Shown here: positions 3,036 to 50,462 of the stretch, piece by piece
Position numbering within the stretch: the first letter of the stretch is position 1
How the letters are laid out: each line of letters starts with the position of its first letter
Made by a program: the position numbers and the translations under genes
Assembly: GCA_963752285.1 (NCBI GenBank)
Contig: CAVVXN010000005.1
Coordinates: 1,216,001 to 1,280,000 of the forward strand
Length of the DNA stretch: 64,000 nt
Direction of reading: 5' to 3'
Source: an uncultured Planctomycetota bacterium
Lineage (GTDB): Bacteria > Planctomycetota > PLA2 > JAEUHO01
Notes under the pieces: model-generated
Databases searched by the model: none
Told to the model about the DNA's origin: nothing
What the model saw: the letters and a program-made list of their open reading frames with translations, nothing else

Positions 3036-6000
3036 ATGAAGCGCAACGTCCTCGTCCTATTCGTCGTCACCCTCGGCCTCTCGATCGCGGCCTGTCGCGG
3101 ACGACGGAGCCTCGTCGTGGAGGAGGCCCAGGCGCCCGAGGCGGCGCCGACCTCCGGCATGAAGAACCCGAAGGCCGGCGACGTCGAGGTGATCTCGCGC
3201 CGGCCGGTGCCCGCGCCGAACGCGCCGGCCGAGTCCGACGTCGTGGTGATCCCCGATCAGACCGCGCCGTCGTCGGGCGACGTCGCGATGGTGCCGGACG
3301 GCGGGCCGGCCGCCCAGCCGGCCGCCGCCGGCGACACGGACGAAAACGAGGCGGGCGAGAACGAAGCGGGCGAGCATGACGCGGGCGAGCCGGAAGCGGG
3401 CGAGGACGACGCCGGCGAGGCCCCGCCCGCCGGCGCAGCGCCCGCCGCGCCTTCCGGGGACGACGCCCAGCGTCTCCTCGACGAGGCGAAGAAGCGCGCG
3501 GCCGTGGAGGCGCAGAAGCGCGACGCGCTCGTGCAGAGCTTCCTGGTCAAGGCGAAGCAAGCCGAGGGCGACGGCGACCTCGACGCCGCCCGCGATCTCT
3601 ACGGCAAGGCCTTCGACCTCGACCCGACGAACGTCCAGGCGCGCGAGGGCGTCGAGCGCCTGACCATGGAGCGCCCGAGCACCGTCGGCGAGTTCCTCGG
3701 CCGCACGCGCACCGCCGAGACCGTACGGCGCGAGCAGGCCGCCGCCGAGGTCCGCACGTACCTCGAGCAGGGCCGCACGATGGAGGCGCGCGAGGACTAC
3801 GCGGGCGCCATCGACCAGTACCAGCGGGCCCTGGCGATCGTGTCCTGGTACACGGACCAGCGCGACTTCGGCGTCACGGCGGACAAGGTCCGGGACCTCA
3901 TCGAGAACGCGAAGTACAAGCGCGACCTCGCCGCGCGCGTCTCCCGCCAAGACCAGATCAAGGCGGCCCAGGCGGAGCGCGAGCAGGAGCTCGTCTCGGA
4001 GCGCGAGCGCCGCATGGGCAAGATCCGCGCCTACTTCGAGGAGGCGCACCGCGCGTTCCAGCGCGGCGACTACGCGCTCGCTCGGGAGTACGCGAAGCAG
4101 ATCCAGAAGCTCGACCCGCAGAACAACGACGCCGAGCGACTCGTGTGCATCTCGTACGACGCGCAGCACCTCGACGACAGCGAGCGCGCGCGCATGATGT
4201 TCGCCGACCAGTGGAAGGCGGTCATGGAGGACATGGACCGGTCCCTCCTCCCGCAGGTCGAGACGGTCCAGTTCCCGAGCGACTGGCTCGACACGATCGC
4301 GCAGCGCGGTCCGCCGGTCATCGGCGACGAGCAGGCCGAGCAGGACTCGAGCGTCGCCCAGATCCTGACCACCCTCGAGTCGAAGCGCGTGAAGGGGCTC
4401 AGCTGGGAGAACGCGAACCTCGACCAGGTCGTCTCCTACCTCCGCACGATCACGGGCCTCAACTTCTTCATCACCCCCACCGTCCGCGCCGAGAAGTTCG
4501 ACGAGGTCTCGGTGACCTTGAGCCTCGACGACGTCTCCGTGAAGACGATCCTCGACCTCATCACGTCCCAGCACGAGCTGAAGTGGGAGCCGAAGGACGG
4601 CGTCGTGCGGATCGCCACGGGGGGCGAGGTCCGCGGGGACATGCTCCTCCGGTTCTTCGACGTGAAGGACTTGAACGTCCAGATCCGCAACTTCATCGGG
4701 CAGGAGATCAACCTCACGCCCTCGAACTTCACCCCGCCGGAGCCGCCCGAGCTGCCCGAGCCCACCGCCATCTACCCGGCGGACGGTCTCGTCGAGCTCA
4801 TCCGCGAGACGATCGGCAGCGAGGGGACCTGGGACGAGCCCGCGTCGATCGACACGAGGAACGGCGTGATCATCGCGCGCAACACCACCCCCATCCTCGA
4901 GCAGGTTCAGAAGCTCCTCGACGAGCTGCGCCGCAACAGCGGCATGCTGGTCAACCTCGAGGTCCGCTTCCTGACGGCGGAGGACAACTTCCTCCGCGAC
5001 GTCGGCGTAGACGTGCGCGGCCTGGGCGACAACTCGCAGGGCGTCGGTCAGCCGGGTCTCGGCACGCAGGTCGTCCAGGACGACATCTTCTTCGGCACGA
5101 GCGCACAGCCCTACGGCGTTCCGTTCGGCGTCTTCCCCGAGCCGTCCTCGGGCGGCACCTCGCACGACGCGGGCATCTTCTACAACGACGGCGCCGACGG
5201 CGCGTACAGCGGGCGCGTCGAGAACCTCTACGACCTGCTGCTCGGCAACCCCGACGTGCTGACCAGCACGGGCGGCCTGTCGTTCCAGAACACGTTCCTC
5301 GACGACACGCAGGTCGAGGTCATCCTCCGCGCGGTCGAGAAGAGCGAGCGCATCCAGCGCATCACCGCCTCGCGCATCACGGTGTACGACACGCAGCGCG
5401 CCACGATCTCGGTCCTGAACCAGGTCGCATACGTGGCCGACTACGAGGTCGAGATCGCGCAGGCGTCGAACATCGCGAACCCGGTGATCCAGACGATCCA
5501 GGACGGCATCGTCCTCGACGTCCGCCCCGTCGTGTCCTCGGACCGTCGGTTCATCCTCCTCGAGCTCCGCCCCACGGTGGCGCTCCTCACCCGCCCGATC
5601 GCGACGTTCAGCACGTCGCTGGCGTCCGGCCCCGGTCCGGTGTCCTCGTCCGCCCCGGTCATCATCCAGATCCCGGAGCTCCTCGTGAGCCGTGTCCGGA
5701 CGACCGTGGCGATGCCCGACGGCGGCACGCTGCTCCTCGGCGGCCTCAAGTTCTACGAGCAGGTCCACGAGGACACGGGCATCCCGTTCCTCTCGGACAT
5801 CCCCGTGGTGTCGCTCCTCTTCTCGCGGAAGGGGACGTACACGAACCGCCGCGACCTCCTGGTCCTCATCACCGCGCACATCGTCCCGCTCGAGGAGCTC
5901 GAGCCGAAGGACGACCTCGAGATCCCGGCGGCCCCCATCACGGAGTGGACACCCGTCCAACCGGTCGACGGCGCTCCCTCTGCGCCCCCCGCGCCCGCCC

Positions 6001-6098
6001 CGTGCGCCCCCTGCGCGGCGGGGAACGGGATGGGCGGCCCCGTCCTCATGCCGGCGACCGGCGCCCCCGCCGGCCCGCCGCCGGTCGTCCGCCGCTGA
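3036..6098 (+). CDS. Lipoprotein secretin (type II/III secretion-family outer-membrane pore), paralog 1, with TPR-like N-terminal region
   Basis: Lipobox LSIAA|C; helical TPR-like repeats; STN/N0-like (WENANLDQVVSYLR...LDDVSVKTILDLI); N3-like (ARNTTPILEQVQKLLDELR); secretin core (GIVLDVRPVVS, TVAMPDGGTLLLGGL, GIPFLSDIPVVSLLFS, DLLVLITAHIV). Confidence 0.88.
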   Translation: MKRNVLVLFVVTLGLSIAACRGRRSLVVEEAQAPEAAPTSGMKNPKAGDVEVISRRPVPAPNAPAESDVVVIPDQTAPSSGDVAMVPDGGPAAQPAAAGDTDENEAGENEAGEHDAGEPEAGEDDAGEAPPAGAAPAAPSGDDAQRLLDEAKKRAAVEAQKRDALVQSFLVKAKQAEGDGDLDAARDLYGKAFDLDPTNVQAREGVERLTMERPSTVGEFLGRTRTAETVRREQAAAEVRTYLEQGRTMEAREDYAGAIDQYQRALAIVSWYTDQRDFGVTADKVRDLIENAKYKRDLAARVSRQDQIKAAQAEREQELVSERERRMGKIRAYFEEAHRAFQRGDYALAREYAKQIQKLDPQNNDAERLVCISYDAQHLDDSERARMMFADQWKAVMEDMDRSLLPQVETVQFPSDWLDTIAQRGPPVIGDEQAEQDSSVAQILTTLESKRVKGLSWENANLDQVVSYLRTITGLNFFITPTVRAEKFDEVSVTLSLDDVSVKTILDLITSQHELKWEPKDGVVRIATGGEVRGDMLLRFFDVKDLNVQIRNFIGQEINLTPSNFTPPEPPELPEPTAIYPADGLVELIRETIGSEGTWDEPASIDTRNGVIIARNTTPILEQVQKLLDELRRNSGMLVNLEVRFLTAEDNFLRDVGVDVRGLGDNSQGVGQPGLGTQVVQDDIFFGTSAQPYGVPFGVFPEPSSGGTSHDAGIFYNDGADGAYSGRVENLYDLLLGNPDVLTSTGGLSFQNTFLDDTQVEVILRAVEKSERIQRITASRITVYDTQRATISVLNQVAYVADYEVEIAQASNIANPVIQTIQDGIVLDVRPVVSSDRRFILLELRPTVALLTRPIATFSTSLASGPGPVSSSAPVIIQIPELLVSRVRTTVAMPDGGTLLLGGLKFYEQVHEDTGIPFLSDIPVVSLLFSRKGTYTNRRDLLVLITAHIVPLEELEPKDDLEIPAAPITEWTPVQPVDGAPSAPPAPAPCAPCAAGNGMGGPVLMPATGAPAGPPPVVRR
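3345..3419 (+). repeat. 5 x 15-nt coding tandem repeat (xx-E/D-AGE pentapeptide) in secretin 1 linker
   Basis: aacgaggcgggcgag/aacgaagcgggcgag/catgacgcgggcgag/ccggaagcgggcgag/gacgacgccggcgag. Confidence 0.85.
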
Positions 6099-6114
6099 GC
6101 GACGACGACTCGTC

Positions 6115-6151
6115 GAACCGGCCGGTCGCGCGACGCGCGACCGGCCGGTTC
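6115..6151 (+). terminator. Perfect 17-bp hairpin after secretin 1; probable intrinsic terminator or stabiliser
   Basis: gaaccggccggtcgcgc-gac-gcgcgaccggccggttc followed by cgtttcg, 16 nt after the stop codon. Confidence 0.7.
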
Positions 6152-6213
6152 CGTTTCGTCGGCGGAGCTCGGGGTCCATCCCGCCCGGCGCCGGCGCCGT
6201 TCGCATCCGCCCC

Positions 6214-6242
6214 TTGCGTGCGTTCCCCCGGGGGGCTACACT
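6214..6242 (+). promoter_or_regulatory. Putative sigma70 promoter P1
   Basis: TTGCGT-17 nt-TACACT. Confidence 0.55.
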
Positions 6243-6244
6243 CC

Positions 6245-6371
6245 CGAGTGAGCCCATTCGTCCGACCCACGTGTGGCCTCGTCCCCCATCTGGCGCGCGT
6301 CCGGACCTCGAGGAGGGACCGGAGTTGCCGGTGCCGATGGCCGCCACGTACCGACGGGATGCATCCGCTCG
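6245..6371 (+). ncRNA. Candidate structured small RNA or leader (long irregular rod hairpin)
   Basis: Nested helices read by eye (see findings); begins immediately after the P1 -10 box; no known family recognised. Confidence 0.35.
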
Positions 6372-6420
6372 ACGCGTGTCCGATCGCGGCGGCGCCGAGT
6401 CGCAGGGCTTCCCGGTCGCG

Positions 6421-6449
6421 TTGACCACCGTGACGCCGGTCCCTAGAAT
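6421..6449 (+). promoter_or_regulatory. Putative sigma70 promoter P2 for the TPR-TPR-exbBD genes
   Basis: TTGACC-17 nt-TAGAAT, near consensus in an otherwise very GC-rich background. Confidence 0.75.
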
Positions 6450-6722
6450 CCAGCGCCCGCGGGCCCGGCATCCCTCGAAGGACCCGATCGGAACCGCGTC
6501 CTGGTCTCGCTACGCGCCCTGGGCGCGGAACCGGGGACCAGGTCGCACGACCCGATGCCGGACCCTCGGCCCAGTCCGGGTGCCCCGTCGGCGGAGGCCC
6601 GCCCTGGGGCGCCGTTCGCCCTCCGCCTCGGATTCCCCCCGCCGCCCCCGACCTCCCCTCGCACGCCTCCCCTCCTCTCGTACGCACCCGGTCCCAGGAA
6701 CCCCTCCGGAGGACGTCTCGTC

Positions 6723-9700
6723 ATGACCGACCCCCTCTCGACCGCCCCGCGCCGGGGACGCCGCCGGATCTCGCTCGCGCTGCTCCTCCTGCTCGCTGGC
6801 CTCCCGCTCCTGCCCGCCCGCGCGGGCCCGGACGACTTCGAGTTCGGCAAGGAGCTCGCGAAGGCACGCTACTTCGACTACGCGCGGGAGGTCTTCGACT
6901 CCATCCTGTCGAGCTCGAAGTCGAGCGACGAGTCGAAGGACGAGGCTCGGTACGGCATAGCGCTCCTGAAGCGCGAGGAGGCGATCGCGGCGACCGCGCG
7001 CCAGGACGCGAAGCAGGAGGAGATCCAGTCGCTCTTCGAGTCGGCCGCACAGGACATCGAGCAGTTCGTCAAGAAGAACCCGAGCAACAAGAACGCGGAC
7101 GCGGCCCGCCTCGACGTCGGCCAGACCCGCCTCGCGTTCGTCCAGTGGGCGCGCGAGATGCTCGAGGACCCGGGCGAGATCGCCGATCGGGGGTACGACG
7201 CCGACAAGCTCCGGGCCGCGGCCGCGGACAGCGTCAAGAGGGCCATCGAGTACTTCGGGGGGCTGAAGCCCGCCGATACCGCGTCGAACCCGACCCCCCT
7301 CCAGGAGCTGGCGAACTACTACTACGTCATCTCCCAGTACTACGCCGCGCTGGTCGAGCCGCCCTGCTCGCCGAGCGCGGTGAGCAGCTTCACGAATGCC
7401 TCGGAGCTGCTCGACAACTACATCATGCTGCACGAAGGTCAGCTCCTCGCCGTGTACGCGATGGACATCCTCGGCCTCGTCTGGTGGGAGCGGGCCCGCT
7501 GCGAGCCCAACGACGAGGAGAAGACGAAGGACTACAACCAGGCCTACGAGTGGTTCGAGGCGTGCATCAACACGCCCGACGATGGCCCCGAGTACCTGCA
7601 GGTCATCGCGAGCGGCTACTACCACCTCGGGGAAGCCGGCCTCGACGCCGGCCCGCGGCCCCGCGGCCCCGGCGGCGGGAACTTCGCCCGCGATGCGCTG
7701 ACCGAGCTCGAGAAGATGAACACGCAGCACCCGACGGTGTGGCGCACCGACAGCGGGCTCCGCGCGATGCTCGAGTGGGCGAAGCTCGAGTGCCAGCGCG
7801 GGAACGCCCGGAACGCCGTCGCCATTGCGAACGACGCCGGCGCGCGCGCGCGCCAGGCGAGCAAGCCCTTCATCGAGCGCACGGCGAACCGCCAGCTCAC
7901 GGAGTTCGTCTCCGGCGGGTGCGGCGGCTCGGTGACCGGCCTCGACCCCGAGGTGCTCGGCCGCGTCGCGCAGGACTTCATGGCGCGGAGCAAGTACCCC
8001 GAGGCGATCCGCGCGTACCGCGGCGTCATCGCCTCCACGCCCAACACCCCGGAGGCGTTCGTCGCCTACCGCTGGGACGCCTGGCTGGAGATCGCGCGCG
8101 CGTACCTCAAGATGGACGACTCCCTCGGCTACGCCCTCGCGCTGGAGGCCATCCACGAGGCCTGGATCGACCGCCGGATCCCCCACGACCCCGAGAGCGG
8201 TCCCGCCTATCCGAACGAGGAGAAGGCCGCGGGCGCGCGCAAGCGGTCCGCGCAAGCGATGGATCAGATCGCCCAGGCGACGGGCAGCGTCACCTTCCAG
8301 AACGAGGCGAAGGCGATGCTCGAGTCGCTCGGCCCGAGCTATCCCCACTCCGGCATCGTGGACACGGTCAACTGGAACCTGGGACTCCAGAAGTTCACGG
8401 CCGCGCAGCAGATGAAGAACGGCGGGCAGACGGGGTGGGAGAAGCCCCTCGACGAGGCGCGCCAGCGCTTCCGCGCCGTCGCCGTGGACGACAAGTCCGA
8501 GCACCAGGACGAGGCGTGGGTGATGCTCGTCCGGGTCGAGAGCCTGGCCGACATGTACGAGGACGAGATCAAGATCGCTGAGGAGGCGGAGGCGTTCTGG
8601 GAGACGCCCGGGCACAAGGCGCAGGAGGACCGGTTCCCGACGATTCGTGCGCGGCGCGAGAAGGCCCGGTCGGAGGTCACCTACTTCCGGGGCGACGCGC
8701 TGAGCAAGCTGAAGCGGCCCGAGGAGGTCGTGAAGACCCTCGACGGATACCTGGAGAGGTACCCCACGGCGGCGCGGCCCTTCCCCTCCACGTACGTGCT
8801 CTCGACCCTGATCTCGGCCTACCTCGACCTGGGGAACGTCGAGAAGGCCGACACGCTGTACCGGACCCTTCTGCGTCGCGACCCGGACTTCCCGTACCTG
8901 AGCGGGGTCACCTTCAAGTTCGCCGACCGCTACAACGAGGCGCGGAAGAAGATCGAGACGGACCTGAGGGACGTGAAGGTCCAGTTGAACAAGCTCGGGC
9001 CGAAGCTCCGCGGCGAGGTGCAGACCGTCCAGACCCTGAGCCTCAACATCGCGGACGTGAGGAACCGGGTCACGAAGCTCGAGAACGCCCTCGCCCTCCA
9101 CAAGCACAACAAGGAGCTCGAGAAGCGGGGCGAGCAGATCACGCAGGGCGTGAGCCCGGAGCTCCTCACCGCCGCGCTCGAGGAGGAGAAGACCCAGGCC
9201 CAGCACAAGGAGCTGGAGAGCCTCAAGGTGCAGGTCCAGAAGGCGACGGAGCAGCGCGACGCCGACCAGAAGAGCATCGACGAGCTCGGGACGCGTCGCC
9301 ACGACCTCGAGCAGCAGATCTACGAGCCCCTCACGAAGGCCGCCGGCTACTACAAGGCGTGGGACGACACCCTGAAGACGCTCAAGGCCGACCGCGACCC
9401 CGACAACCTCGCGGTCTTCGGCTACATGTTCTACACGGCGGCGAAGCTGCGCCCCGCCGTCGCCGACAACTGGGTGAACGCGCGCGCGTTCTACGAGGAC
9501 TACCTCGCGAGCCCGAAGATCAAGGCCAAGCCCGGGACGGACGACGACAAGCGCGCCGCCGAGGCCCGCCTCGGCGACATCCTGGTGAACCTCGCCGAGT
9601 CCGAGACGAACGCGACGAAGCGCCAGCAGGACGTCACGCGCGCCGTGGACCTCCTCCAGGGCTCGATCGCCAACGCGCCCGAGGACAACGACCTCGTGGT

Positions 9701-10529
9701 CAGCATGCTCGCCAACAAGGTGCTGGTCCTGGTGTTCAAGGACACCGCCGGCACCGAACAGAGGGTCTGGCGCTTTGCGATCCCGCTCCCCTCCGACGTC
9801 AAGGGCGTCCGGGACGCCGTCGCGAAGATCGACAACAAGCAGGCGAACCCCTACTACCCGAACTTCTCCGCGGGGCAGTCCCAGGAGGAGAGCCAGTGGA
9901 AGACCGCCGTGAGTCGCTTCAAGACCCGACTGACGGCGACGAACGACCGGGTGCTCGCCGGGTTCATCCCCCAGCCGGGGCAGACGCCGTTCGACCCCTC
10001 GCTCTATCGCTCTCTCGCCAACTCCGCTTCGGAGTTCCGCATGGCGCTCGCGTGGGCGCTCGCGAGGACGGGACGGAACGAGGACGTGCCGAAGGCCGTC
10101 AACCTCTTCAACACGTTCCTCAAGGCGCCCCTCGCGGCCGAGGAGGACAGCGAGGACTTCTGGCGCGCCAGCTACGGGTTGATGCGCGTCTACGTGGACT
10201 TTGCCGAGCGGGGCCTGGCGGCCGGCCAGCCGGGTCCGGAGGTCAAGGAAGCCCTGGACAGCGCCGGGAAACTGATCGTCCAGCGCCACGCCTTCTATCC
10301 GAGCTTCGGAGACTCGGTGCTGGACGACAGCTCCACCCGGTGGAAGGAGATGCTGACGCGTCTGAACGACCTTCGGCGCAAGGTCCGGCTCGACCCGGTC
10401 ACCCTCGTGAAGGCGGCCGCCCTGGACACCGCCCCCCCCAGCGACGGAGGCGAGAAGCCGTCCGGCGCGTCCGCCCCCGAGCCGGGTGCGTCCTCGACCG
10501 GCGAGACGCCCAGCGACGGGAACAAGTGA
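6723..10529 (+). CDS. Large secreted alpha-helical/TPR-like protein (~1268 aa) with central coiled coil
   Basis: GGAGG RBS before ATG 6723; signal peptide RRRISLALLLLLAGLPLLPARA; helical repeats (FGKELAKARYFDYAREVF, AQDFMARSKYPEAIRAY, SAYLDLGNVEKADTLY); heptad K/E/Q/L-rich segment at about 8930-9320. Confidence 0.75.
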   Translation: MTDPLSTAPRRGRRRISLALLLLLAGLPLLPARAGPDDFEFGKELAKARYFDYAREVFDSILSSSKSSDESKDEARYGIALLKREEAIAATARQDAKQEEIQSLFESAAQDIEQFVKKNPSNKNADAARLDVGQTRLAFVQWAREMLEDPGEIADRGYDADKLRAAAADSVKRAIEYFGGLKPADTASNPTPLQELANYYYVISQYYAALVEPPCSPSAVSSFTNASELLDNYIMLHEGQLLAVYAMDILGLVWWERARCEPNDEEKTKDYNQAYEWFEACINTPDDGPEYLQVIASGYYHLGEAGLDAGPRPRGPGGGNFARDALTELEKMNTQHPTVWRTDSGLRAMLEWAKLECQRGNARNAVAIANDAGARARQASKPFIERTANRQLTEFVSGGCGGSVTGLDPEVLGRVAQDFMARSKYPEAIRAYRGVIASTPNTPEAFVAYRWDAWLEIARAYLKMDDSLGYALALEAIHEAWIDRRIPHDPESGPAYPNEEKAAGARKRSAQAMDQIAQATGSVTFQNEAKAMLESLGPSYPHSGIVDTVNWNLGLQKFTAAQQMKNGGQTGWEKPLDEARQRFRAVAVDDKSEHQDEAWVMLVRVESLADMYEDEIKIAEEAEAFWETPGHKAQEDRFPTIRARREKARSEVTYFRGDALSKLKRPEEVVKTLDGYLERYPTAARPFPSTYVLSTLISAYLDLGNVEKADTLYRTLLRRDPDFPYLSGVTFKFADRYNEARKKIETDLRDVKVQLNKLGPKLRGEVQTVQTLSLNIADVRNRVTKLENALALHKHNKELEKRGEQITQGVSPELLTAALEEEKTQAQHKELESLKVQVQKATEQRDADQKSIDELGTRRHDLEQQIYEPLTKAAGYYKAWDDTLKTLKADRDPDNLAVFGYMFYTAAKLRPAVADNWVNARAFYEDYLASPKIKAKPGTDDDKRAAEARLGDILVNLAESETNATKRQQDVTRAVDLLQGSIANAPEDNDLVVSMLANKVLVLVFKDTAGTEQRVWRFAIPLPSDVKGVRDAVAKIDNKQANPYYPNFSAGQSQEESQWKTAVSRFKTRLTATNDRVLAGFIPQPGQTPFDPSLYRSLANSASEFRMALAWALARTGRNEDVPKAVNLFNTFLKAPLAAEEDSEDFWRASYGLMRVYVDFAERGLAAGQPGPEVKEALDSAGKLIVQRHAFYPSFGDSVLDDSSTRWKEMLTRLNDLRRKVRLDPVTLVKAAALDTAPPSDGGEKPSGASAPEPGASSTGETPSDGNK

Positions 10530-10551: not shown

Positions 10552-11901
10552 ATGACCCGCCTCGTCCTCTCGAGAGCCCTCCTCGGGGCCGGCCTCCTCG
10601 GCCTCTCGCTCGCGTCCGCCCGCCTCGCGCGCGCCGACGAGATCGTCTACCGGGACCCCGCGACCTGCGCCGAGAAGACGGCGAAGGGCGTGGAGGTCAC
10701 GTCGGAGACGTGGACGGAGATCCGCTACAAGGAGAAGTCGCGCGGTCCGGAGCTGTCGGTGCCGACCTCGCTGGTCGTGGACATCCAGCACGCGGACACG
10801 TCGCCCCAGGTGCAGAGCCTCCTGTCGGCGATCGCCGACGTGGAGCGCGCGCCGACGATCGAGACGGTGAACACCCTTCACGCGCTGTCCGGAGGCGGCT
10901 TCGAGCAGGACCTGAGCACCGGCGCCATGGTCTACAAGCCGTTCGGGGAGTCGGAGGGTTCGAAGCACCGTCCGCCGTGGCCCACCGAGTACGCGCACTT
11001 CTACTACGCGAAGGCCCTGTACCTCGTCGGCACCAAGACGAAGGACCCCGAGCTCCTCAAGCAGGCCTACCTGGCCCTCGTGGACCAGAAGGTGAAGGGG
11101 GCGGGAGGCAAGGACGTCCAGACCGGCGGGTTCCTCACCCGCTTCGAGGGCGGGAACAGCCGGTGGTACGCGGAGGCGACGACGATCGCCGCCAAGTGTC
11201 TCATCGGCCTCCAGCGCTACGACGAGGCGACGGCCCTCTTCAAGCAGCTCGAGGACAAGACCCTCGCCCTCGACATCGGCCCGGAGTGGGCCTACGAGGC
11301 GAAGATCGGACCGGCCGAGATCGCCGAGGCGCAGGGGAACGCCCAGAGCGCCATCAACGCCGCCATCGCGGCGACCAACTTCATGCAGCTCATGCTCAAG
11401 AACGAGGTGCGCGAGTGCGTGCGGCGCGAGCTGGGTCGGTACTACAGCCGGGCGCGCATGCGCGCCGCGTCGGTCATGCTCCGCGAGGCGGAGCGCAACA
11501 AGAACCCCTCGCAGTTCGCCGACCTGAGGAACTTCATCCAGGAGAGCACGCCCGAGGCGCTGCGCAAGCAGTTCTCCACCTTCACCCCCGAACAGATCGA
11601 CGCCATCGTCCAGGGCGCCATGGACCCCTACGTCCAGGCCGTGCTGAAGAACGGGCTCGGCTTCGCCTACCTCTCCGAGAAGCGGTACGACGACGCCGTC
11701 CTCGCGTTCCGGGCGGTGGCCGTGAAGTACTTCGAGGAGCCGGAGGAGCACGCCCGGGCGCTCCACTACCTGGCCCAGGCCGCCGACGAGGCCGCGAAGG
11801 CGGCCACCCGACCGGAGGCCAAGAAGCTCTACGAGGCGTGGCGGGACGCGGCGCGGGAGAGCCTCCGGAAGGAGCATCCCGGCTCCCCGTGGGTGAAATG
11901 A
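10552..11901 (+). CDS. Secreted TPR-like protein (~449 aa)
   Basis: Signal peptide ...GLSLASARLARA|DEIVY; TPR-like LGFAYLSEKRYDDAVLAF, ARALHYLAQAA; C-terminus LRKEHPGSPWVK resembles CpoB/YbgF-type TPR ends. Confidence 0.75.
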   Translation: MTRLVLSRALLGAGLLGLSLASARLARADEIVYRDPATCAEKTAKGVEVTSETWTEIRYKEKSRGPELSVPTSLVVDIQHADTSPQVQSLLSAIADVERAPTIETVNTLHALSGGGFEQDLSTGAMVYKPFGESEGSKHRPPWPTEYAHFYYAKALYLVGTKTKDPELLKQAYLALVDQKVKGAGGKDVQTGGFLTRFEGGNSRWYAEATTIAAKCLIGLQRYDEATALFKQLEDKTLALDIGPEWAYEAKIGPAEIAEAQGNAQSAINAAIAATNFMQLMLKNEVRECVRRELGRYYSRARMRAASVMLREAERNKNPSQFADLRNFIQESTPEALRKQFSTFTPEQIDAIVQGAMDPYVQAVLKNGLGFAYLSEKRYDDAVLAFRAVAVKYFEEPEEHARALHYLAQAADEAAKAATRPEAKKLYEAWRDAARESLRKEHPGSPWVK

Positions 11902-12059: not shown

Positions 12060-12767
12060 ATGACCAAGTCGCGCATCTTCACCCTCGCCTTGCTCGCGCT
12101 GGGGGGCGCCCTACTCCTCGCTTCACCGGCCCTGGCGCAGGAGGAGGAGAGCAGGAACGCCTTCTCTCACATCATCCAAGACGGCGGCCCCATCGGGATC
12201 GTCATCATCGTCCTCTCGGTCGCGACGCTCGCCCTGGTGATCGAGTACGGCGTCAACGTGCGCCGCGACAAGATCTGCCCCCCCGAGCTCGTGGACGAGC
12301 TCGAGGCGCTCCTCGAGGAGGAGGAGTACCAGGAGGCGCTCGAGCTCTGCGAGTCGGAGCCCAACTTCCTGACCAACTCCCTCGCCGCCGGCCTGCCCCG
12401 ACTGAACGAGGGGTACGCCAAGATGAAGGAGGCCATGGAGGCGCAAGCCGGGATCGAGGCGGTGAAGCTCCAGCAGAAGGTGGGCTGGATGCTCTTCCTC
12501 TCGAACGTGGCCCCCATGCTCGGCCTCTTCGGGACCGTGACCGGTATGATCTCGGCGTTCGACAAGATCGTCTCCCTCGGCGCGAAGGTCACGCCGAAGG
12601 ATCTCGCGGGCGGCATCTCGGCCGCGTTGATCACGACGTTCCTCGGTCTTCTCGTCGCGATCCCCGCCCTCTTTGCCTACCAGTACTTCCGCAACAAGGC
12701 GACCCGCATCTCGATCGACTTCGCGGGGATCCTGGAGGACATGACGGAACGATTCCGAAACCGCTAG
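12060..12767 (+). CDS. exbB: MotA/TolQ/ExbB proton-channel family protein
   Basis: SNVAPMLGLFGTVTGMISAF, LAGGISAALITTFLGLLVAIPA; cleavable-looking N-terminal signal. Confidence 0.93.
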   Translation: MTKSRIFTLALLALGGALLLASPALAQEEESRNAFSHIIQDGGPIGIVIIVLSVATLALVIEYGVNVRRDKICPPELVDELEALLEEEEYQEALELCESEPNFLTNSLAAGLPRLNEGYAKMKEAMEAQAGIEAVKLQQKVGWMLFLSNVAPMLGLFGTVTGMISAFDKIVSLGAKVTPKDLAGGISAALITTFLGLLVAIPALFAYQYFRNKATRISIDFAGILEDMTERFRNR

Positions 12768-12839
12768 CCGAACGCGGCCGCGGGTCCCGACCCCGATTCA
12801 CGTGCGCTGCTCGTCCGACCCGATGACCGGAGCCCCCCC

Positions 12840-13346
12840 ATGGCCTGGAAACGCCCGCGCGATGAGGACACCAAGCCCAACCTCACGCCGATGATCGACA
12901 TGACCTTCCTCCTGGTCGTGTTCTTCATGATCGCGATCGACCTGTCCCAGAAGGAGTTCCAGCCGGTCGAGCTGCCCTACGCCAAGAACGCGATACCGGA
13001 CAAGGAAGACCCCGACGTCAAGCGGCTCGTCATCAACCTGCTCGAGAGCGGCGACATCGTGTTCAAGAACTACGTCGGCAAGCTCGCCACGGGCTCGCCG
13101 GCGGAGCAGGCGGACGCGCTCGTCAATCTGAAGAAAGAGCTCGAGATCCTGACCGCCGACATCAAGCTGAAGGAGCCGGACGGCGCCAGCAAGGTCCCGG
13201 TGATGATCCACGGCGACCGCTCCGCGCGCTGGCAGTTCGTACAGTGGATCATGCAGGTGTGTGCCGATCCCCGCGTGCAGATCTACAAGATCCAGTTCGC
13301 GGTGAAGGGCCCGACGCCGAAGGAGAAGGCGGAGGGAGGGGGCTAG
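12840..13346 (+). CDS. exbD: ExbD/TolR family protein 1
   Basis: NLTPMIDMTFLLVVFFM (conserved TM Asp); VMIHGDRSARWQFV. Confidence 0.9.
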   Translation: MAWKRPRDEDTKPNLTPMIDMTFLLVVFFMIAIDLSQKEFQPVELPYAKNAIPDKEDPDVKRLVINLLESGDIVFKNYVGKLATGSPAEQADALVNLKKELEILTADIKLKEPDGASKVPVMIHGDRSARWQFVQWIMQVCADPRVQIYKIQFAVKGPTPKEKAEGGG

Positions 13347-13461: not shown

Positions 13462-14037
13462 ATGGCGATGAAGATCCCCGAGTCCGACGAGACGGAAATG
13501 AACATGACGCCGATGATCGACGTCGTGTTCCAGCTGATCGTGTTCTTCATGCTCGTGCTCAAGTTCAAGAGCGTGGACCTGAGGATCCAGAGCGAGCTCC
13601 CGAAGAACAAGGGCATCCAGGCCACGAACCAGTTCGTGGACGAGAAGCCGATGATCACGGTGAAGCTCTTCAACCACGACACCGAGACGGACCACGCGTA
13701 CACGAAGATCCGCATCGGGAACAACTACGAGGTCAACCTGCCGAAGGGCAAGTGGTCGGGCATCGGCCAGGAAGACGAGAGACGCCTGGAGGAATACAAG
13801 CAGGCGAAGCAGCAGGTCGTTGCCGCGATCAAGGGGATGTGGACCCAGCTCGGTCAGAAGGACGAGACCCAGGGCGAGATCAAGACCCCGCCCCCCTTCG
13901 GACAGGGCGTGCCGAACGGCGACGTGATCATGGTGCTCGACGCGTTCCTCGAGGCCGGAGTGAAGAGCGTCGAGTTCGAGGGCGCGATGCCCCCGAACTT
14001 CCACGCCGGCCAGGGCGGCGTGATCGAGCGCAACTGA
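13462..14037 (+). CDS. exbD: ExbD/TolR family protein 2
   Basis: NMTPMIDVVFQLIVFFM; VPNGDVIMVLDAFLEAGV. Confidence 0.88.
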   Translation: MAMKIPESDETEMNMTPMIDVVFQLIVFFMLVLKFKSVDLRIQSELPKNKGIQATNQFVDEKPMITVKLFNHDTETDHAYTKIRIGNNYEVNLPKGKWSGIGQEDERRLEEYKQAKQQVVAAIKGMWTQLGQKDETQGEIKTPPPFGQGVPNGDVIMVLDAFLEAGVKSVEFEGAMPPNFHAGQGGVIERN

Positions 14038-14090
14038 GCGGTCGGGCCGCCTGACGGCCCGCGGCGGGGGCGCGACGTGCGTGCGCCTTC

Positions 14091-14129
14091 GTCGTCGGCT
14101 CCGTCCTCCGGACGGGGCCTCCCGACGAC
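14091..14129. terminator. GC-rich hairpin between exbD2 and exbD3
   Basis: gtcgtcgg/ccgacgac outer stem enclosing gctccgtcc-tcc-ggacggggc; small hairpin gggccg-cctga-cggccc at 14044-14060; no U-tract. Confidence 0.35.
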
Positions 14130-14198
14130 CGGCGCGTCGCGCCGGTGGGATCCGACCCGGAGAGCGACCCGGCGCGCGTCGGGCCGGGAGGTCGGACC

Positions 14199-14729
14199 AT
14201 GACCGCCTCACGCTTCGAGGAAGAGAACGCGAATCCCGGGGACTTCCTCACCCCGATGATCGACGTCGTCTTCCAGCTGATCGTCTTCTTCCTCTTCACG
14301 CTCCGGTTCCGCTCGCTCGACCGTCGCATCGAGAGCGAGCTGCCGCGCGACGGTCCGTGCCCGTCGCCGGTCTTCGTGAACGAGCCCCCGACGGTGAAGG
14401 TGGCCTGCTTCCGCGTGGACCCCGCCGGACCGCGACCCTTCACGCGCCTCCGCCTCGGCGCGCGGACCGTGGACCTGCCCCCCGTCCCCGAGTTCGATCG
14501 CGGCGCCCGGGCGGACGTCGTCCAGGCGGTTCGTGACCTGGAGGCGCGACTCGGCGATCCGCCGGCCGTGAAGGGCGAGATCCGGACCCCGCCGCCGTTC
14601 GGGCCGGCCGTGCCGCACGGCGACGTCGTCTTCGTGCTCGACGCGCTGCTCGAGGCCGGGATCGCGGACGTGACCTTCGAGGGATCCCCCTTGCCCCTGC
14701 CCGCTCCGCCGCCGCCCGCCCGGAGGTGA
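14199..14729 (+). CDS. exbD: ExbD/TolR family protein 3 (close paralog of ExbD2)
   Basis: GGAGG RBS; LTPMIDVVFQLIVFFLF; GEIRTPPPFGPAVPHGDVVFVLDALLEAGI. Confidence 0.85.
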   Translation: MTASRFEEENANPGDFLTPMIDVVFQLIVFFLFTLRFRSLDRRIESELPRDGPCPSPVFVNEPPTVKVACFRVDPAGPRPFTRLRLGARTVDLPPVPEFDRGARADVVQAVRDLEARLGDPPAVKGEIRTPPPFGPAVPHGDVVFVLDALLEAGIADVTFEGSPLPLPAPPPPARR

Positions 14730-16627
14730 GCGCCCTCCTTGCCTCGGGCCCCTCCCGGGGCGAGGCTCGGGGCCTCGTGCGAACCCGCGTCCTACTCGTC
14801 CTGGCGGTCGCCGCCGCGGCGGCCTCCCTCGTCCTCTGGCGACCGTGGGCCCGATCGCGGGCCCCCGGCGTCCGGACCCTCGTGCTGGTCACGCTCGACA
14901 CGACGCGCCGAGACCACGTGGGCACGTACGCCCCGACCGACCGGGCGACGGGCGTTCCGGACGCCTCGACGCCGAACCTCGACCGTCTCGCCGCCTCGGG
15001 CGTTCGCTTCGACGACGCGATGACGCCGGTCCCGCTGACCCTCCCCGCGCACACCGCGATGCTCTCGGGTCTGCCGCCCGCCGCGACCGGGGTCCGCGTG
15101 AACGCGTACGGCCGGATCCCCGACGCCTCGGTCCGCGGCTTCGCGCTCCTTCCCGAGTCGCTCGCGGCCGCGGGCTGGAAGACGGGCGCGTTCGTCTCGG
15201 CCAGCCCACTCGCCCGCCGCTACGGCCTCGACCACGGGTTCGGGACCTACGACGACGGCGATCTCGAGGACCCGCACGGCCTCGAGTGCGCGGAACGGGC
15301 GGGCGCCGTAACCGTGGACCGCGCGCTCGCCTGGCTCGCCCTGCGCACCGGGACGGAGCGCGTGTTCCTCTGGGTGCACCTCTTCGAGCCGCACGCGCCG
15401 TACGCGCCCGAGGCGCCGGCGGGCCTCCCCGCGGACACGCGCTACCGCCTCGACGTCGCCCGGGCGGACGCGGCGGTCGGCCGTCTCCTCGAGGGTCTCG
15501 CGGCGCGGGGACGCGGCGACGCCGCGGTGCTGGTGGTCGCCGACCACGGCGAGGCGCTCGACGAGCTCGGCGAGAAGACCCACGGCATCCTGCTCGGAGA
15601 CGCCGTCCTCCGGGTGCCGATGCTCCTCCGCGCCCCGGGGCTCCTACCGGGCGTTCGGACCGACCCCGCCGACCTCGCGGACGTGGCCCCGACGCTCGCG
15701 CACCTCGCGAACCTCCCGTGGGACCCGCACGCCGAGGTCGTCGGTCACGGCCAGGACCTCCTCCGCGCGCCGGCACCCGCCGACCGGGTCCGCGTGGCGG
15801 AGTCGCTGTACGCAAACCAGCTCCACGGGTGGGCCCAGCTCCTCGCCGCGACGGGCCCGGACGGCGGGACGCTCGTGGACGCGGGCGCCGACCGCCTCCG
15901 GTGGCTCGTCCGCGCCCCCTTCGGCGACCCGCAGGCCGCGCCCGGTCCCCCGGGCCACCCCGAGGGCCTCGCGCGTCTCGGCGACGCCCTTCGCCGCTAC
16001 CGGCAGGGCGAACGCGCGGACCGGATCCAGGCCGGCGACGTTCCCTCGGGGTACAGCGCGGCGGCGCGGGTCGCGCCCTTCCTGGACCCGGTCGAGAACG
16101 CGCGACGACCCGACCCCTACGCCTCGATCGACCGGCACTTCCTGCTCGACCGCGAGAAGGAGCGGCTCCTCGCGGGGGCGTCCCCCACGGACGTGGTGAA
16201 CGCGCTCGAGCGGCTGGCCGGCCAGGACCCGCACGACATGGAGGTCCGGTTCTGGATCGGGAACGCCTGGGCCCGGGAGGCCGCCCGGCGCGACGGAAGC
16301 GGGGCCGGGCCGGCCGAGGTGCGCGAGGCCCTCGGGCAGGCGGAGGCGTCGTACGTCCGGGCGCTCGAGAACGGACGGCGCGACCCGACCACCCTCGTCC
16401 TCGCCGCGGGCACCAACGCCAGGGACCGCGAGGCGGAGATGCTCGACCGGCTCGACCGGTGGGCGCCGGAGGTCGAGCCGGACTACCGGGTCCCGGCGCT
16501 CCGCGCGCGCCTGCTCGAGAGCCTCGGCCGGACCGCCGACGCCGGGCGTGCCTGGGGGAAGGCGGAGACGCTCACCCGCTCCCCTTCCGAGCGACGCGCG
16601 CTCGAGCGACTCCGCCATCCCCGTTGA
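14726..16627 (+). CDS. Sulfatase-like/alkaline-phosphatase-superfamily hydrolase with C-terminal TPR-like region
   Basis: LVLVTLDTTRRDH, TPNLDRLA, PLTLPAHTAMLSG, WVHLFEPHAPY, VADHGE; N-terminal TM anchor; start may instead be GTG 14777. Confidence 0.85.
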   Translation: MSALLASGPSRGEARGLVRTRVLLVLAVAAAAASLVLWRPWARSRAPGVRTLVLVTLDTTRRDHVGTYAPTDRATGVPDASTPNLDRLAASGVRFDDAMTPVPLTLPAHTAMLSGLPPAATGVRVNAYGRIPDASVRGFALLPESLAAAGWKTGAFVSASPLARRYGLDHGFGTYDDGDLEDPHGLECAERAGAVTVDRALAWLALRTGTERVFLWVHLFEPHAPYAPEAPAGLPADTRYRLDVARADAAVGRLLEGLAARGRGDAAVLVVADHGEALDELGEKTHGILLGDAVLRVPMLLRAPGLLPGVRTDPADLADVAPTLAHLANLPWDPHAEVVGHGQDLLRAPAPADRVRVAESLYANQLHGWAQLLAATGPDGGTLVDAGADRLRWLVRAPFGDPQAAPGPPGHPEGLARLGDALRRYRQGERADRIQAGDVPSGYSAAARVAPFLDPVENARRPDPYASIDRHFLLDREKERLLAGASPTDVVNALERLAGQDPHDMEVRFWIGNAWAREAARRDGSGAGPAEVREALGQAEASYVRALENGRRDPTTLVLAAGTNARDREAEMLDRLDRWAPEVEPDYRVPALRARLLESLGRTADAGRAWGKAETLTRSPSERRALERLRHPR

Positions 16628-16884
16628 CGCGGCGGTGACACTCCCGGCCCCGCGAACGCGCCGCGGAGCCTCGATTCGCCCGAAGTCGTTTTCAGGCCGG
16701 GACGTATGACCAAGCCATGACCGCTCTCGGGTGATCTACGCCGGTCCAGGGAGGAGGTTCTCGGCGTCGGCGAGTGGCGGGCGAGGGCCCGCGGTCGCGC
16801 CGTCGTCCGGTCCTCGCGACGAGGATCTCGTCCTCGCGCCAGGAGACCACCTCCCGCAGAGGCTTTGCAGAGCAGGAGATCGGC

Positions 16885-19776
16885 ATGCACAGGGACGTGC
16901 GTAGCTCGCTCGGTTCCGCGCTCGTGGTCGCGACGCTCGCCTTCACCGCCTGTCACGGTCGCCGACAGATCGCGGTGTCGCCTGCGGCGCCGATGGCCGC
17001 CCAGCCCGCGGCGACGCCGTCTTCGGGCGGTCCGACGCCCGGAGAGCTCGCCGCGAAGGCCGGCGACGTCGTGATCGTCTCGCGCCGTCCGGTCCCGACC
17101 GCCGCCGAGCCCGGCGCGGCCGCGCCGCCCGCGAGCCCGATGCCCGCGCCCGCCGCGGCCCCGTCGGGCGAGCCCGCGGCGCCGGCCGGAGAGGCGGGCC
17201 CGGAGGCGGGACCCGGCGCCCTGCTCGGCGACGTCCGACTCCGCTCCGCCGTCGAGCGCGACAAGGTGCAGTTCGTCGTCCAGCAGAAGCTGCAGTCCGC
17301 CAAGGACGAGGAGCTCAACGGCAACTACGCCGCCGCCGAGCGTCTGCTCCTCGACGCCCAGGAGCTCGACCCGACGAACACCGACGTGCGCACCGAGCTC
17401 CGACTCGTGCAGGCGTACCTCGGCCGCCGCTCCGCCACCGCGGGCGACTTCCTCGAGACCGTGCGCCAGGTGCAGAAGGTGCGGATCGACGAGCAGCGCA
17501 CCACCGCGAGCAAGCTGGTCAACCTCGCGCGTCAGAACCTCCAGGGTCGGCGGTACGACGACGCGATCGACAACTTCGAGCAGGCGCTCTTCATCATCAC
17601 CTCTTCGCCGTACGACGTGGACTGGGGCGGCCTCAAGGAGCAGGCCGAGCAGGGGCTCCGCAACGCGAAGCAGATGAAGCAGGAGGCCCAGCGCGCCGAG
17701 CACCGCGCGTCGGTCGAGAGCTCCCTCGAGAACATGGCCCAGGCCGAGGAGCAGCGCCTGCTCGCCGAGCAGCAGCAGCTCGAGCGTCTCATGGGCTCCG
17801 CGATCGAGGCCTTCGACCGCGACGACTTCGAGCACGCCGAGTTCTACGCCGGCAAGGTGCTCGACGTGCAGCCCGACAACACGAAGGCCCGCGACCTCCA
17901 GCTCGCCGCGCGCCGCGCCCACCACGACCAGGTCGAGGGCGACTACCTCATCGAGGAGAAGCGCCACTTCCGCGAGTGGATGGACGACATCGAGGCCACG
18001 CGCATCCCGCAGGACAAGATCCTCAAGTGGCCCAGCCAGTCGTTCTGGGACCACATCTCCGAGGTCCGGCGCGCCACGCGTGCCAGCTTCGGCGCGGTCG
18101 AGGTGGACCCCGAGGCCGACGCACTCCGCGCGAAGCTCCGCACGACGACCGTGAACCTCCAGGTCCAGGACCAGCCCTTCGAGGACGTGGTGAAGCTCCT
18201 CTCGATCCAGACGGGCATCAACCTCACGATCGACGCGCGGATCAAGAGCGACATCGGGCAGAACCCCGTCGCGAGCCTCCAGGCCGAGGACCTCCCGCTC
18301 TCGACCGTGCTCGACCTCCTCAAGCAGTCCGCCGGCGAGGACGCCGTGTGGACCGTCAAGGGAAACGTCGTCCTCTTCACGAACAAGACCCTCTTGAAGC
18401 CGCCCCTCACCGTGCAGCTGCACGACGCGGCGGACCTCACCACGGGCCTGCCCGACTTCATCCCGCCCAACATCCAGATCGTGAACCCCGACATGGTGTC
18501 CGACGAGGAGCACCCCCTCTTCGGCGCCGAGGGCGAGGAGCCGCGGCTCCCCTACGGCACGATCGACGAGCTCATCGAGCTCATCAAGGGCGCGGTCGAG
18601 CCCAAGTTCTGGGACGAGACCGAGGGCGCGGAGATCCGGGCCCAGGGCGAGCACACGCTGGTCGTGAAGGCGACCGACCCGATCCAGGAGAAGGTCGAGA
18701 GCTTCCTGAACGACCTGAGGGCGTTCGCCGGGATCGTCGTGACGATCGAGACCCGGTTCCTCGAGGTCGGCGACTACTTCCTCCGCGACGTCGGCGTCGA
18801 CTGGCGCGGGCTCGGCGGCCAGACGCCCGGTCCGCTCGTCAACCTCGACGACGTGACGAACGGGCTCGTGAACGGCGCGTCGGCCGGCTACGACAACGGC
18901 GGCGGCGGCCTCACCACGGGCGCCGCGCTGAACCCGTCTTCGGGCGTGTACTTCAGCGACGGCCACGAAGGTGACATCCGGGCCCGGACGGAGAACATCT
19001 TCAACAACAGCCTCGGGACGGTGCTCTCGTCCCTCGGCGGCGCGAGCTTCACGTTCTCGTACCTCGACGACACCGACATCTCGATGATCTTGAGGGCCAC
19101 GCAGAAGTCCGCCCTCGCGAAGTCGCTGACCGCCCCGAAGATCACCGTCTTCAACACGCAGCGCGCGAACCTGACGGTGGTGAACCAGCTCTCCTACATC
19201 CAGGACTTCGACGTCGAGGTCGCGCAGACCTCCTTCATCGCGGACCCGATCGTCGGCATCATCCAGGACGGCCTTACGCTCGACGTCCGGCCGACCGTCT
19301 CGAACGACCGGCGGTACATCACGCTCGAGCTCCAGCCCACCGTCGCGAAGCTCTCCCAGCCCATCCCGACGTTCGCCACCACCCTGGCGTCGTCGTTCAC
19401 CCCCGTCATCATCCAGCTGCCCGAGCTGAGGCTCCAGCAGGCCCGCGTGACCGTGCGGATCCCGGACCGCGGCTCGATCCTGATCGGCGGCCTCAAGAAC
19501 ATCACCACGGTGGACCGCCAGTCCTCGACGCCCTGGCTCGCGAACGTACCGATCCTCTCGTTCTTCTTCAGCCGCAAGGGCCGGAGCGACGAGGTCACGC
19601 ACCTGATGATCATCGTTCGCGCCGAGATCACGGACCTGCACGAGCAGGAGCAGTCGGTCATGGGGACGACCGGCGGACCGGGCGAGCGCGTGGCGCTCCC
19701 CCCCACGCCCTTCCACATGGACGCGTTGCCGCCGAACCCCTGCGAGGTCACGACGCCTCCGCCGCCGGTGAAGTGA
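16885..19776 (+). CDS. Lipoprotein secretin, paralog 2, with TPR-like N-terminal region
   Basis: GGAG RBS; lipobox LAFTA|C; same domain order as paralog 1; IETRFLEV, GLTLDVRPTVSNDRRYITLELQP, TVRIPDRGSILIGGL, PWLANVPILSFFFS. Confidence 0.88.
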   Translation: MHRDVRSSLGSALVVATLAFTACHGRRQIAVSPAAPMAAQPAATPSSGGPTPGELAAKAGDVVIVSRRPVPTAAEPGAAAPPASPMPAPAAAPSGEPAAPAGEAGPEAGPGALLGDVRLRSAVERDKVQFVVQQKLQSAKDEELNGNYAAAERLLLDAQELDPTNTDVRTELRLVQAYLGRRSATAGDFLETVRQVQKVRIDEQRTTASKLVNLARQNLQGRRYDDAIDNFEQALFIITSSPYDVDWGGLKEQAEQGLRNAKQMKQEAQRAEHRASVESSLENMAQAEEQRLLAEQQQLERLMGSAIEAFDRDDFEHAEFYAGKVLDVQPDNTKARDLQLAARRAHHDQVEGDYLIEEKRHFREWMDDIEATRIPQDKILKWPSQSFWDHISEVRRATRASFGAVEVDPEADALRAKLRTTTVNLQVQDQPFEDVVKLLSIQTGINLTIDARIKSDIGQNPVASLQAEDLPLSTVLDLLKQSAGEDAVWTVKGNVVLFTNKTLLKPPLTVQLHDAADLTTGLPDFIPPNIQIVNPDMVSDEEHPLFGAEGEEPRLPYGTIDELIELIKGAVEPKFWDETEGAEIRAQGEHTLVVKATDPIQEKVESFLNDLRAFAGIVVTIETRFLEVGDYFLRDVGVDWRGLGGQTPGPLVNLDDVTNGLVNGASAGYDNGGGGLTTGAALNPSSGVYFSDGHEGDIRARTENIFNNSLGTVLSSLGGASFTFSYLDDTDISMILRATQKSALAKSLTAPKITVFNTQRANLTVVNQLSYIQDFDVEVAQTSFIADPIVGIIQDGLTLDVRPTVSNDRRYITLELQPTVAKLSQPIPTFATTLASSFTPVIIQLPELRLQQARVTVRIPDRGSILIGGLKNITTVDRQSSTPWLANVPILSFFFSRKGRSDEVTHLMIIVRAEITDLHEQEQSVMGTTGGPGERVALPPTPFHMDALPPNPCEVTTPPPPVK

Positions 19777-50461: not shown

Positions 50462-50462
50462 C

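Follow-up and report, generated by a model that had tools for sequence, protein, structure and literature searches.

Secretins and proton-driven motors of the ExbB/ExbD type belong to different worlds: to our knowledge, all secretins with a known energy source are served by ATP-driven pilus, pseudopilus, needle or phage-assembly machines, and ExbB/ExbD-type motors work via TonB, TolA or Glt proteins. A nine-gene cluster in a 64,000-nucleotide stretch of DNA from an uncultured Planctomycetota bacterium (contig CAVVXN010000005.1, positions 1,216,001 to 1,280,000; this whole stretch is the window, and unprefixed nucleotide positions below refer to it) places two secretin genes on either side of an ExbB/ExbD motor operon, and thereby raises the question of what opens these secretins. 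An earlier note on this DNA had proposed a scaffold of tetratricopeptide repeat (TPR) proteins by way of which the motor may gate or power the secretins. We find that the cluster is a conserved, lineage-specific envelope module of uncultured, high-GC Planctomycetota, unpublished as such, and we favour, with a probability of roughly 0.4, the reading that it serves as a trans-envelope module which, powered by protons and lacking TonB, gates TPR-secretins of the Amuc_1098 type.

Because the window has a G+C content of ~73%, genes were called by analysis of G+C at third codon positions (GC3) first and by Pfam and NCBIfam scans thereafter. This yielded the following genes:

3036-6098, + strand: secretin 1, 1020 aa, lipobox LSIAAC, PF00263 3.6e-26, TPR_2 1e-9
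6723-10529, + strand: bigTPR, 1268 aa, signal peptide, Pfam TPR matches
10552-11901, + strand: TPR449, 449 aa, signal peptide, no Pfam match
12060-12767, + strand: ExbB, 235 aa, PF01618 4.9e-28, N-terminal signal peptide
12840-13346, + strand: ExbD1, short type, 168 aa, PF02472 1.2e-14
13462-14037, + strand: ExbD2, long type, 191 aa, PF02472 6.8e-11
14199-14729, + strand: ExbD3, second long type, 176 aa, PF02472 1.9e-7
14726-16627, + strand: sulfatase-fold enzyme, PF00884 3.5e-29
16885-19776, + strand: secretin 2, 963 aa, lipobox AFTAC, PF00263 4.8e-23

All nine genes are co-oriented, Pfam backs every one but TPR449, and the ExbD3 and enzyme genes share 4 bp, at the stop of the former and the start of the latter. 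The gene set and the co-oriented order from secretin 1 to secretin 2 that the earlier note had given are borne out by GC3 and the Pfam/NCBIfam matches; its coordinates required correction for ExbD3 (14199-14729) and for the start of secretin 2 (16885).

The secretin domain PF00263 scores 92.2 bits in secretin 1 and 82.0 bits in secretin 2 (cut-off 27.5), and a lipobox marks both as lipoproteins. An AlphaFold2 (AF2) model of secretin 1, built on a 110-row alignment, has a mean predicted local distance difference test score (pLDDT) of 74.6, with the barrel mostly >80, and divides the protein as follows:

Residues 17-144: disordered linker
Residues 142-404: helical/TPR domain, composed of TPR hairpins and two very long helices
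Residues 438-528: N0-like alpha/beta domain
Residues 537-634: single ring domain with a conserved proline-rich loop
Residues 638-950: barrel

Pfam STN reaches 18.8 of the 28.4 bits of its cut-off, and the model places an alpha/beta domain at 438-528. Foldseek searches with the model match BfpB, the competence PilQ, InvG and GspD, the top structural matches being 9u5s_A (1.8e-21) and 6w6m_A (6.4e-21), and the nearest solved chain by sequence in a PDB search is phage f1 pIV (2.4e-12). Secretin 1 falls below the NCBIfam equivalog cut-offs for GspD (80.8 of 351 bits), PilQ (88.1 of 284), MshL (91.2 of 250) and SctC (47.4 of 238). Its best NCBIfam model is the Amuc_1098 family NF042912 (110.1 bits, 8.2e-32, residues 230-808); the cut-off of 750 bits is reached neither by secretin 1 nor by secretin 2 (70.7 bits), so neither is a member and the likeness to Amuc_1098 is one of architecture only. 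Secretin 2 is a paralogue of secretin 1 with 31-34% identity and the same architecture. The barrel and gate region of the secretins is very highly conserved, which, together with the complete secretin fold of the model, fits a working channel.

Several further features of the secretins deserve mention. A nearly invariant proline-rich loop, TPSNFTPPEPPELPEP, lies at residues 560-575 of secretin 1 (~4713-4760) in the periplasmic ring domain and is unstructured in the model. In most members of the secretin family a Cys stands before basic residues (C-[RQ]-G-R-R or C-x-K-K); secretin 1 of one sub-lineage (L017 2327-5548; P0232, P0253, P0255 and P0256) has a plain signal peptide without the lipobox Cys. 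Secretin residues 25-160 are unconserved among 49 aligned sequences. A TonB-box-like strand motif in the N-terminal linkers was considered and rejected, as the 'GDV.VISRRPVP' shared by the window pair recurs in just one of the homologues listed.

In the motor, the proton-channel domain PF01618 of ExbB scores 97.9 bits (cut-off 22.9), and the protein is closer to TolQ than to ExbB, both by NCBIfam (tolQ 82.9 bits, cut-off 221; ExbB 46.7, cut-off 206; both below cut-off) and by PDB search (TolQ 1e-12, ExbB 8.6e-8). PF02472 scores 54.9, 42.8 and 31.6 bits in ExbD1, ExbD2 and ExbD3, respectively (cut-off 25.4). ExbD1 carries a PMID motif; ExbD2 is distinguished by an insert in its periplasmic part and by a FEGAxxPL tail conserved at the C-terminus, and ExbD3 is its clear paralogue. 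The transmembrane Asp (D20) of the long-type ExbDs is invariant in all 24 sequences, indicating that the motor is probably active. The number of intact ExbD copies per locus ranges from 2 to 4. In three related loci, extra ExbD-like open reading frames (ORFs), of which the window has none, stand between the last ExbD and the enzyme (L004 14303-14984, L011 9622-10092 and L005 ~9300-9700) and lack the transmembrane Asp; in those of L004 and L011 the helix carries W-x-x-x-H-[ST]-W, and the C-terminal domain behind it resembles that of ExbD. These ORFs could represent either ExbDs that have degenerated or a variant resembling a transducer.

Between secretin 1 and the motor lie the two TPR genes. 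The central stretch of bigTPR (~830-960) is rich in K, E, Q and L and poor in Pro and Gly, and reads like a coiled coil; the protein matches NCBIfam YbgF/CpoB weakly (2.4e-7, 31 bits, cut-off 90). The AF2 model of TPR449 (pLDDT 91.5) has at the N-terminus a beta domain of six strands (29-79), which leads into a TPR superhelix. With this model Foldseek returned generic TPR proteins only; among these a TPR chain from the periplasmic scaffold of the Campylobacter flagellum, at rank 34 with a TMq of 0.32, was too weak a match to build on. A complex prediction of TPR449 (28-449) with the periplasmic part of ExbD2 (45-191) scored 0.01 (mark 0.32) and counts neither way. A seeming bigTPR-TPR449 fusion in L002 was dismissed as a product of ORF extension, the public protein of that contig, P0341, being 1229 aa long.

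The last gene of the operon encodes what the earlier note had called a sulfatase-fold protein. The fold stands (PF00884); the assignment does not extend to sulfatase chemistry, as the formylglycine motif C/S-x-P-x-R is missing. In its place is T-L-P-A-H, which aligns with S-S-P-S-R of a solved S1 sulfatase chain and is kept as TLPxH in all 11 orthologue sequences; the enzyme is thus not a formylglycine sulfatase. Other motifs (DT, FEPHAPY, DHGE and HG) are conserved in the orthologues, with catalytic-type motifs kept in 11 of 11 over the N-terminal half, and a C-terminal helical domain is present. The C-terminal half of the L002 enzyme is frameshifted (~14990-15780). We take a Thr at the nucleophile position to be that of the phosphoryl-transfer members of the superfamily, and a Pfam Phosphodiest match (7.7e-11) is consistent with this type. 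At the N-terminus, 5 of the 12 sequences have a lipobox and the other 7 a hydrophobic anchor segment free of His, which argues for a tethered periplasmic protein and not for a TonB-like transducer. A role as a TolA/TonB-like transducer was rejected on these grounds, the type of N-terminus not being conserved and His being absent. By its sequence, then, the enzyme is a Thr-type member of the alkaline-phosphatase superfamily, periplasmic and membrane-tethered.

A Pfam scan of 62 ORFs of the window, in which small ORFs outside the GC3-supported frames were only partly covered, found no T2SSE/PilB ATPase, T2SSF/PilC platform or type III secretion family, no TonB_C, TolA or TonB-dependent receptor, no TolB or Pal, no pilin or PilM/N/O/P gene, and neither a GltG-type/TonB_C-like ORF nor GltC. 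The earlier note's statement that ATPase, platform, type III secretion gene, TonB/TolA and TonB-dependent receptor are absent from the 64 kb thus holds among these ORFs.

Relatives were collected by word-seeded searches limited to 8000 candidates each, so that the following family counts are lower bounds: at least 51 relatives of TPR449 (41-57% identity), at least 22 bigTPR proteins and at least 392 matches to the TPR-secretins, the last including tiers at 44-47% and 39-42% identity. Every named source of these relatives is Planctomycetota. A profile search with TPR449 (all-against-library) gave 26 representatives below 1e-30, then a sharp drop to weak matches of 340-390 aa, and its nearest neighbours in the Atlas, proteins of ~340-380 aa, are assigned to Planctomycetota. 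Scanning species-representative genomes with a TPR449 alignment revealed 18 loci (L001-L018), all in metagenome-assembled genomes (MAGs) of Planctomycetota, the phylum that the earlier note had suggested for a synteny survey; their gene content was compared with the window proteins by tblastn. All 11 loci with enough upstream sequence carry secretin 1 there (in the remaining 7 the contig ends first), and all 10 with enough downstream sequence carry secretin 2 (in the remaining 8 the contig ends first). The full order secretin1-bigTPR-TPR449-ExbB-ExbD(n)-enzyme-secretin2, all in the same orientation, is found in the 8 of 8 loci that span it, and partial loci keep the order up to their contig ends. 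Conservation of order in relatives, on whose absence the earlier proposal would have fallen, is therefore found in every complete and partial locus. It persists despite divergence of bigTPR down to 29% identity and of TPR449 down to 38%. Both secretin paralogues are retained as separate orthologue lines, distinct across the loci (53-72% identity within secretin 1, 59-68% within secretin 2, and 30-35% between the two lines over full-length matches). The interior of the cluster is never rearranged; its edges are, in that a haloacid dehalogenase (HAD) gene, present in 8 loci, is inverted in 6 of them, and a uracil-DNA glycosylase (UDG)-family gene is inverted in one locus.

Some loci show irregularities. 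In-frame stops occur in bigTPR of L014 (4741-8532) and in the fourth ExbD of L011 (10093-10662); these and the L002 frameshift may be assembly errors or decay. L003 and L011 are different copies of the cluster (TPR449 with 56% and 48% identity to that of the window) on contigs of one MAG, isolate Ww498, and represent either two paralogous clusters in one genome or a mixed bin.

We turned to the intergenic regions for evidence on how the genes are expressed. The elements found are:

2848-2863, + strand: direct repeat GTGACGGGCACGTGAC (RTGAC-N6-RTGAC), ~170 bp upstream of secretin 1
6115-6151, + strand: perfect 18-bp hairpin, GC-rich and terminator-like, just 3' of the secretin 1 stop
6421-6449, + strand: promoter of the bigTPR operon, TTGACC-N17-TAGAAT, conserved and of sigma-70 type
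16706-16737, + strand: element ATGAC-N7-TGAC-N10-TGNNCT, ~150-180 bp upstream of secretin 2
19801-19826, + strand: 11-bp hairpin with a 4-nt loop, 3' of the secretin 2 stop
450-465, - strand: third RTGAC-N6-RTGAC copy, upstream of a polytopic membrane protein gene

Alignment of the region between secretin 1 and bigTPR across loci reveals a single conserved block, TTGACC-N17-TAGAAT, which matches the window once against 0.00 matches expected and is present exactly once in 14 of the 18 loci, always 150-270 bp 5' of bigTPR. The genes from bigTPR through the enzyme form a single operon driven by this promoter. Hairpins with a T-tract also terminate secretin 1 in L004, L013 and L018. The earlier note's caveat to the linkage, that a terminator and new promoters separate secretin 1 from the TPR genes, holds and goes further than claimed, since secretin 2 has its own conserved upstream element too. 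That block differs from the operon promoter, is unique in the window, and has as its core the RTGAC-N6-RTGAC repeat that is also found upstream of secretin 1. The repeat matches the window 3 times against 0.31 expected. It stands before secretin 1 in all 10 loci that cover that region, and likewise before secretin 2 in all 10 that cover the other, making it a candidate shared regulatory site of the secretins.

The third copy of the repeat occupies the same place in L002 (213-228, - strand), L009 (181-196, -), L012 (884-899, -) and L017 (924-939, -). The gene behind it (3-305, - strand), which is divergently placed and encodes a polytopic membrane protein without a Pfam match, runs off the window; 299 aa of the protein are visible in L017. 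As the repeat stands before this unrelated gene, the secretins would belong to a regulon that extends outside the cluster. By their upstream sequences, the secretins look co-regulated with each other and with one gene outside the cluster, and a small regulon may comprise both secretin genes and that of the polytopic membrane protein.

How, then, might the parts work together? In the reading that we favour, proton flow through ExbB/ExbD stators in the inner membrane would be converted into conformational work. As no TonB/TolA-like transducer is encoded, this work would have to cross the periplasm via the long periplasmic parts of the ExbDs and both TPR scaffolds, and it would arrive at the helical/N0 vestibule of the outer-membrane secretin rings, where it would open the channel for a macromolecular substrate that the tethered esterase could process in the periplasm. 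What the analysis establishes is which parts are encoded, their conserved order, the promoter and the cis-elements; all of the contacts are inferred, as are gating, transport direction and substrate. The coupling of motor to secretin is plausible from their adjacency. A more specific version, which we consider unlikely, makes the cluster the planctomycetal counterpart of TonB-dependent uptake: the secretin pair would be opened by the TonB-less ExbB/ExbD motor via the TPR scaffolds, large polymers containing phosphoesters would enter the periplasm, the tethered Thr-type phosphoesterase would cut them and the neighbouring Opp importer would take up the pieces. A gene set downstream of the cluster (19890-29675), kept in several loci, encodes a cytoplasmic HAD hydrolase whose orientation flips, a RidA/L-PSP protein and an ABC importer of the Opp type, whose two family-5 binding proteins are unusually large (ORFs of 680 and 834 aa). 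A 2025 review states, in its passages on the subject, that the players of planctomycetal energy-dependent macromolecule uptake are unknown (PMC12673574), and the relevant passages of Boedeker et al. (PMC5394234) tie dextran binding to fibres from crateriform structures with no mention there of secretins or TonB. Our full-text literature search, which covered few subscription journals, returned nothing joining secretins to ExbB/ExbD or TolQR in Planctomycetota.

Comparison with known systems shows which parts of the cluster have precedents. Like TonB-ExbB-ExbD and Tol-Pal, it encodes a motor with an invariant transmembrane Asp whereby the inner membrane would energise an outer-membrane process; unlike them, it is found in a window without TonB, TolA, TolB, Pal or a TonB-dependent barrel, and its candidate outer-membrane partner is a secretin. 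On the secretin side, the structures that the secretin 1 model matches best are BfpB of the type IVb pilus, also a lipoprotein, and the competence PilQ, both of which work with ATP-driven pilus machines, whereas none was found in the window. Amuc_1098 of Akkermansia muciniphila, a 907-aa outer-membrane protein with TPR and secretin domains, shares with our secretins an N-terminal TPR region, a C-terminal secretin domain and a host from the Planctomycetes-Verrucomicrobia-Chlamydiae (PVC) group; it is interpreted as PilQ in the passages that treat it (PMC4960237), whereas the secretins here neighbour a proton motor operon.

For the motor operon there is a closer parallel. Clusters of the type TPR-tolQ-tolR-tolR with non-TonB transducers were proposed in PVC bacteria as new systems driven by the proton motive force (PMF), as set out in passages of Williams-Jones et al. 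2025 (PMC12204202). As in the von Willebrand factor A (vWA) form of these clusters described there, TPR-tolQ-tolR-tolR-vWA, the TPR gene here is directly 5' of a tolQ-like gene and heterologous tolR-like genes, and a tethered periplasmic globular protein is encoded next downstream, with no TonB/TolA; both occur in the PVC superphylum. By contrast with those passages, the downstream protein here has an alkaline-phosphatase-superfamily fold in place of vWA and no TonB-like His/SHLS-type helix, a second TPR protein of 1268 aa is present, and two secretins flank the operon; the word 'secretin' has 0 occurrences in PMC12204202. The cluster is also reminiscent of the Agl/Glt core of Myxococcus and relatives, in which, according to Table 1 of Luciano et al. 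2011 (PMC3169522), GltD (1191 aa) and GltE (471 aa) are accompanied by AglR (245), AglQ (162) and AglS (194). In the passages on these proteins, GltD and GltE are adjacent TPR proteins with signal peptides and AglRQS is described as TolQR-like. Both systems thus have large and mid-size secreted TPR proteins encoded side by side, and one TolQ-like and two kinds of TolR-like subunit of near-equal lengths, the comparison being of sizes and order only. In our cluster, unlike the Agl/Glt core, GltG and GltC are not found in the window and secretins take the place of the small beta-barrels.

These comparisons frame the alternatives, of which one is a serious if still doubtful contender: motor and secretins would be neighbours only, the former a self-contained TolQR-type envelope system (a Tol-Pal surrogate or a relative of the PVC TPR-tolQ-tolR-tolR clusters), the latter Amuc_1098-type secretins of a pilus, competence or type II system with ATPase and platform elsewhere. 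The observations that weigh against a secretin-gating motor speak for this arrangement. Three transcription units are present: the secretins are separate from the motor operon and carry a different cis-element, a hairpin ends secretin 1, and the secretin-type repeat also precedes the unrelated membrane protein gene in the window, L002, L009, L012 and L017. Housekeeping genes on either side share the synteny, a UDG-family gene upstream and HAD, RidA and Opp genes downstream; the clade is therefore narrow and conserved adjacency weak evidence. The TPR-secretin family, with its at least 392 matches, is much larger than that of TPR449 or bigTPR, from which it follows that this secretin type probably also functions without these partners. 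Moreover, Amuc_1098, which resembles these secretins in architecture and has been characterised, is taken in PMC4960237 for the secretin of a type IV pilus. The earlier proposal that the motor gates or powers the secretins via the TPR scaffold is weakened accordingly: the cluster that it described is conserved, but the function claimed for it derives from adjacency, which the syntenic flanks, separate units and larger secretin family make less compelling. Mere neighbourhood, however, has difficulty with two anciently diverged secretin paralogues that bracket the operon in 8 of 8 complete loci and are never separated from it by rearrangement. The 62 ORFs scanned in the window also include no pilin, PilM/N/O/P, ATPase or platform gene, and the NCBIfam cut-offs for GspD, PilQ, MshL and SctC are missed widely.

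In the two other arrangements considered, the secretins do take part. A machine like the Agl/Glt core, which strikes us as distinctly unlikely, would equate bigTPR and TPR449 with GltD and GltE, and ExbB, ExbD1 and ExbD2/3 with AglR, AglQ and AglS; it would move or deposit surface material (gliding, adhesion or an Nfs-like polymer), with secretins replacing the Glt beta-barrels. Its sizes (1268, 449, 235, 168 and 191/176 aa), order and signal peptides do parallel Table 1 of PMC3169522, and ExbB is nearer TolQ just as AglRQS is TolQR-like in that account. However, the parallel is one of size and order, no Glt sequence having been compared; neither a GltG-type TonB-like protein nor GltC was found in the window, relatives of bigTPR and TPR449 are solely planctomycetal where named, and the survey passages of PMC3169522 do not list Planctomycetes. 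It is very improbable that the cluster is instead a Tol-Pal surrogate in which the secretin-like lipoproteins would serve mainly as outer-membrane anchors, the motor tethering or constricting the outer membrane with no transport. The TolQ-like ExbB, the weak YbgF/CpoB match of bigTPR (31 bits vs the cut-off of 90) and the failure to recognise TolA, TolB and Pal in the window agree with such a role, but the highly conserved barrel and gate with a complete secretin fold in the model, and a conserved periplasmic esterase without an obvious tethering role, do not.

Across the whole window, neither Rfam at its gathering thresholds nor a tRNA scan gave a match. A role in anti-phage defence (e.g. Zorya-like) was rejected, the sole PADLOC match being a weak one of LmuB to bigTPR (3.2e-4). 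Two large ORFs with strong coding signal, 44999-50680 (- strand, 1893 aa) and 29776-32748 (- strand, 990 aa), have no Pfam or NCBIfam match.

If the secretins are indeed gated by the motor, the cluster would represent a third way of energising an outer-membrane channel, besides ATP-driven secretin machines and motors coupled through TonB, TolA or Glt proteins. The locus offers a concrete candidate for this that can be put to the test, in a phylum for which macromolecule uptake lacks an explanation, and the uptake version, if true, would name players for the energy-dependent process whose mechanism PMC12673574, in its passages on uptake, calls unknown. Even if the secretins work independently, the operon would provide a new downstream partner for the PVC TPR-TolQR modules, an alkaline-phosphatase-superfamily enzyme replacing vWA, and the common cis-element would define a small secretin regulon.

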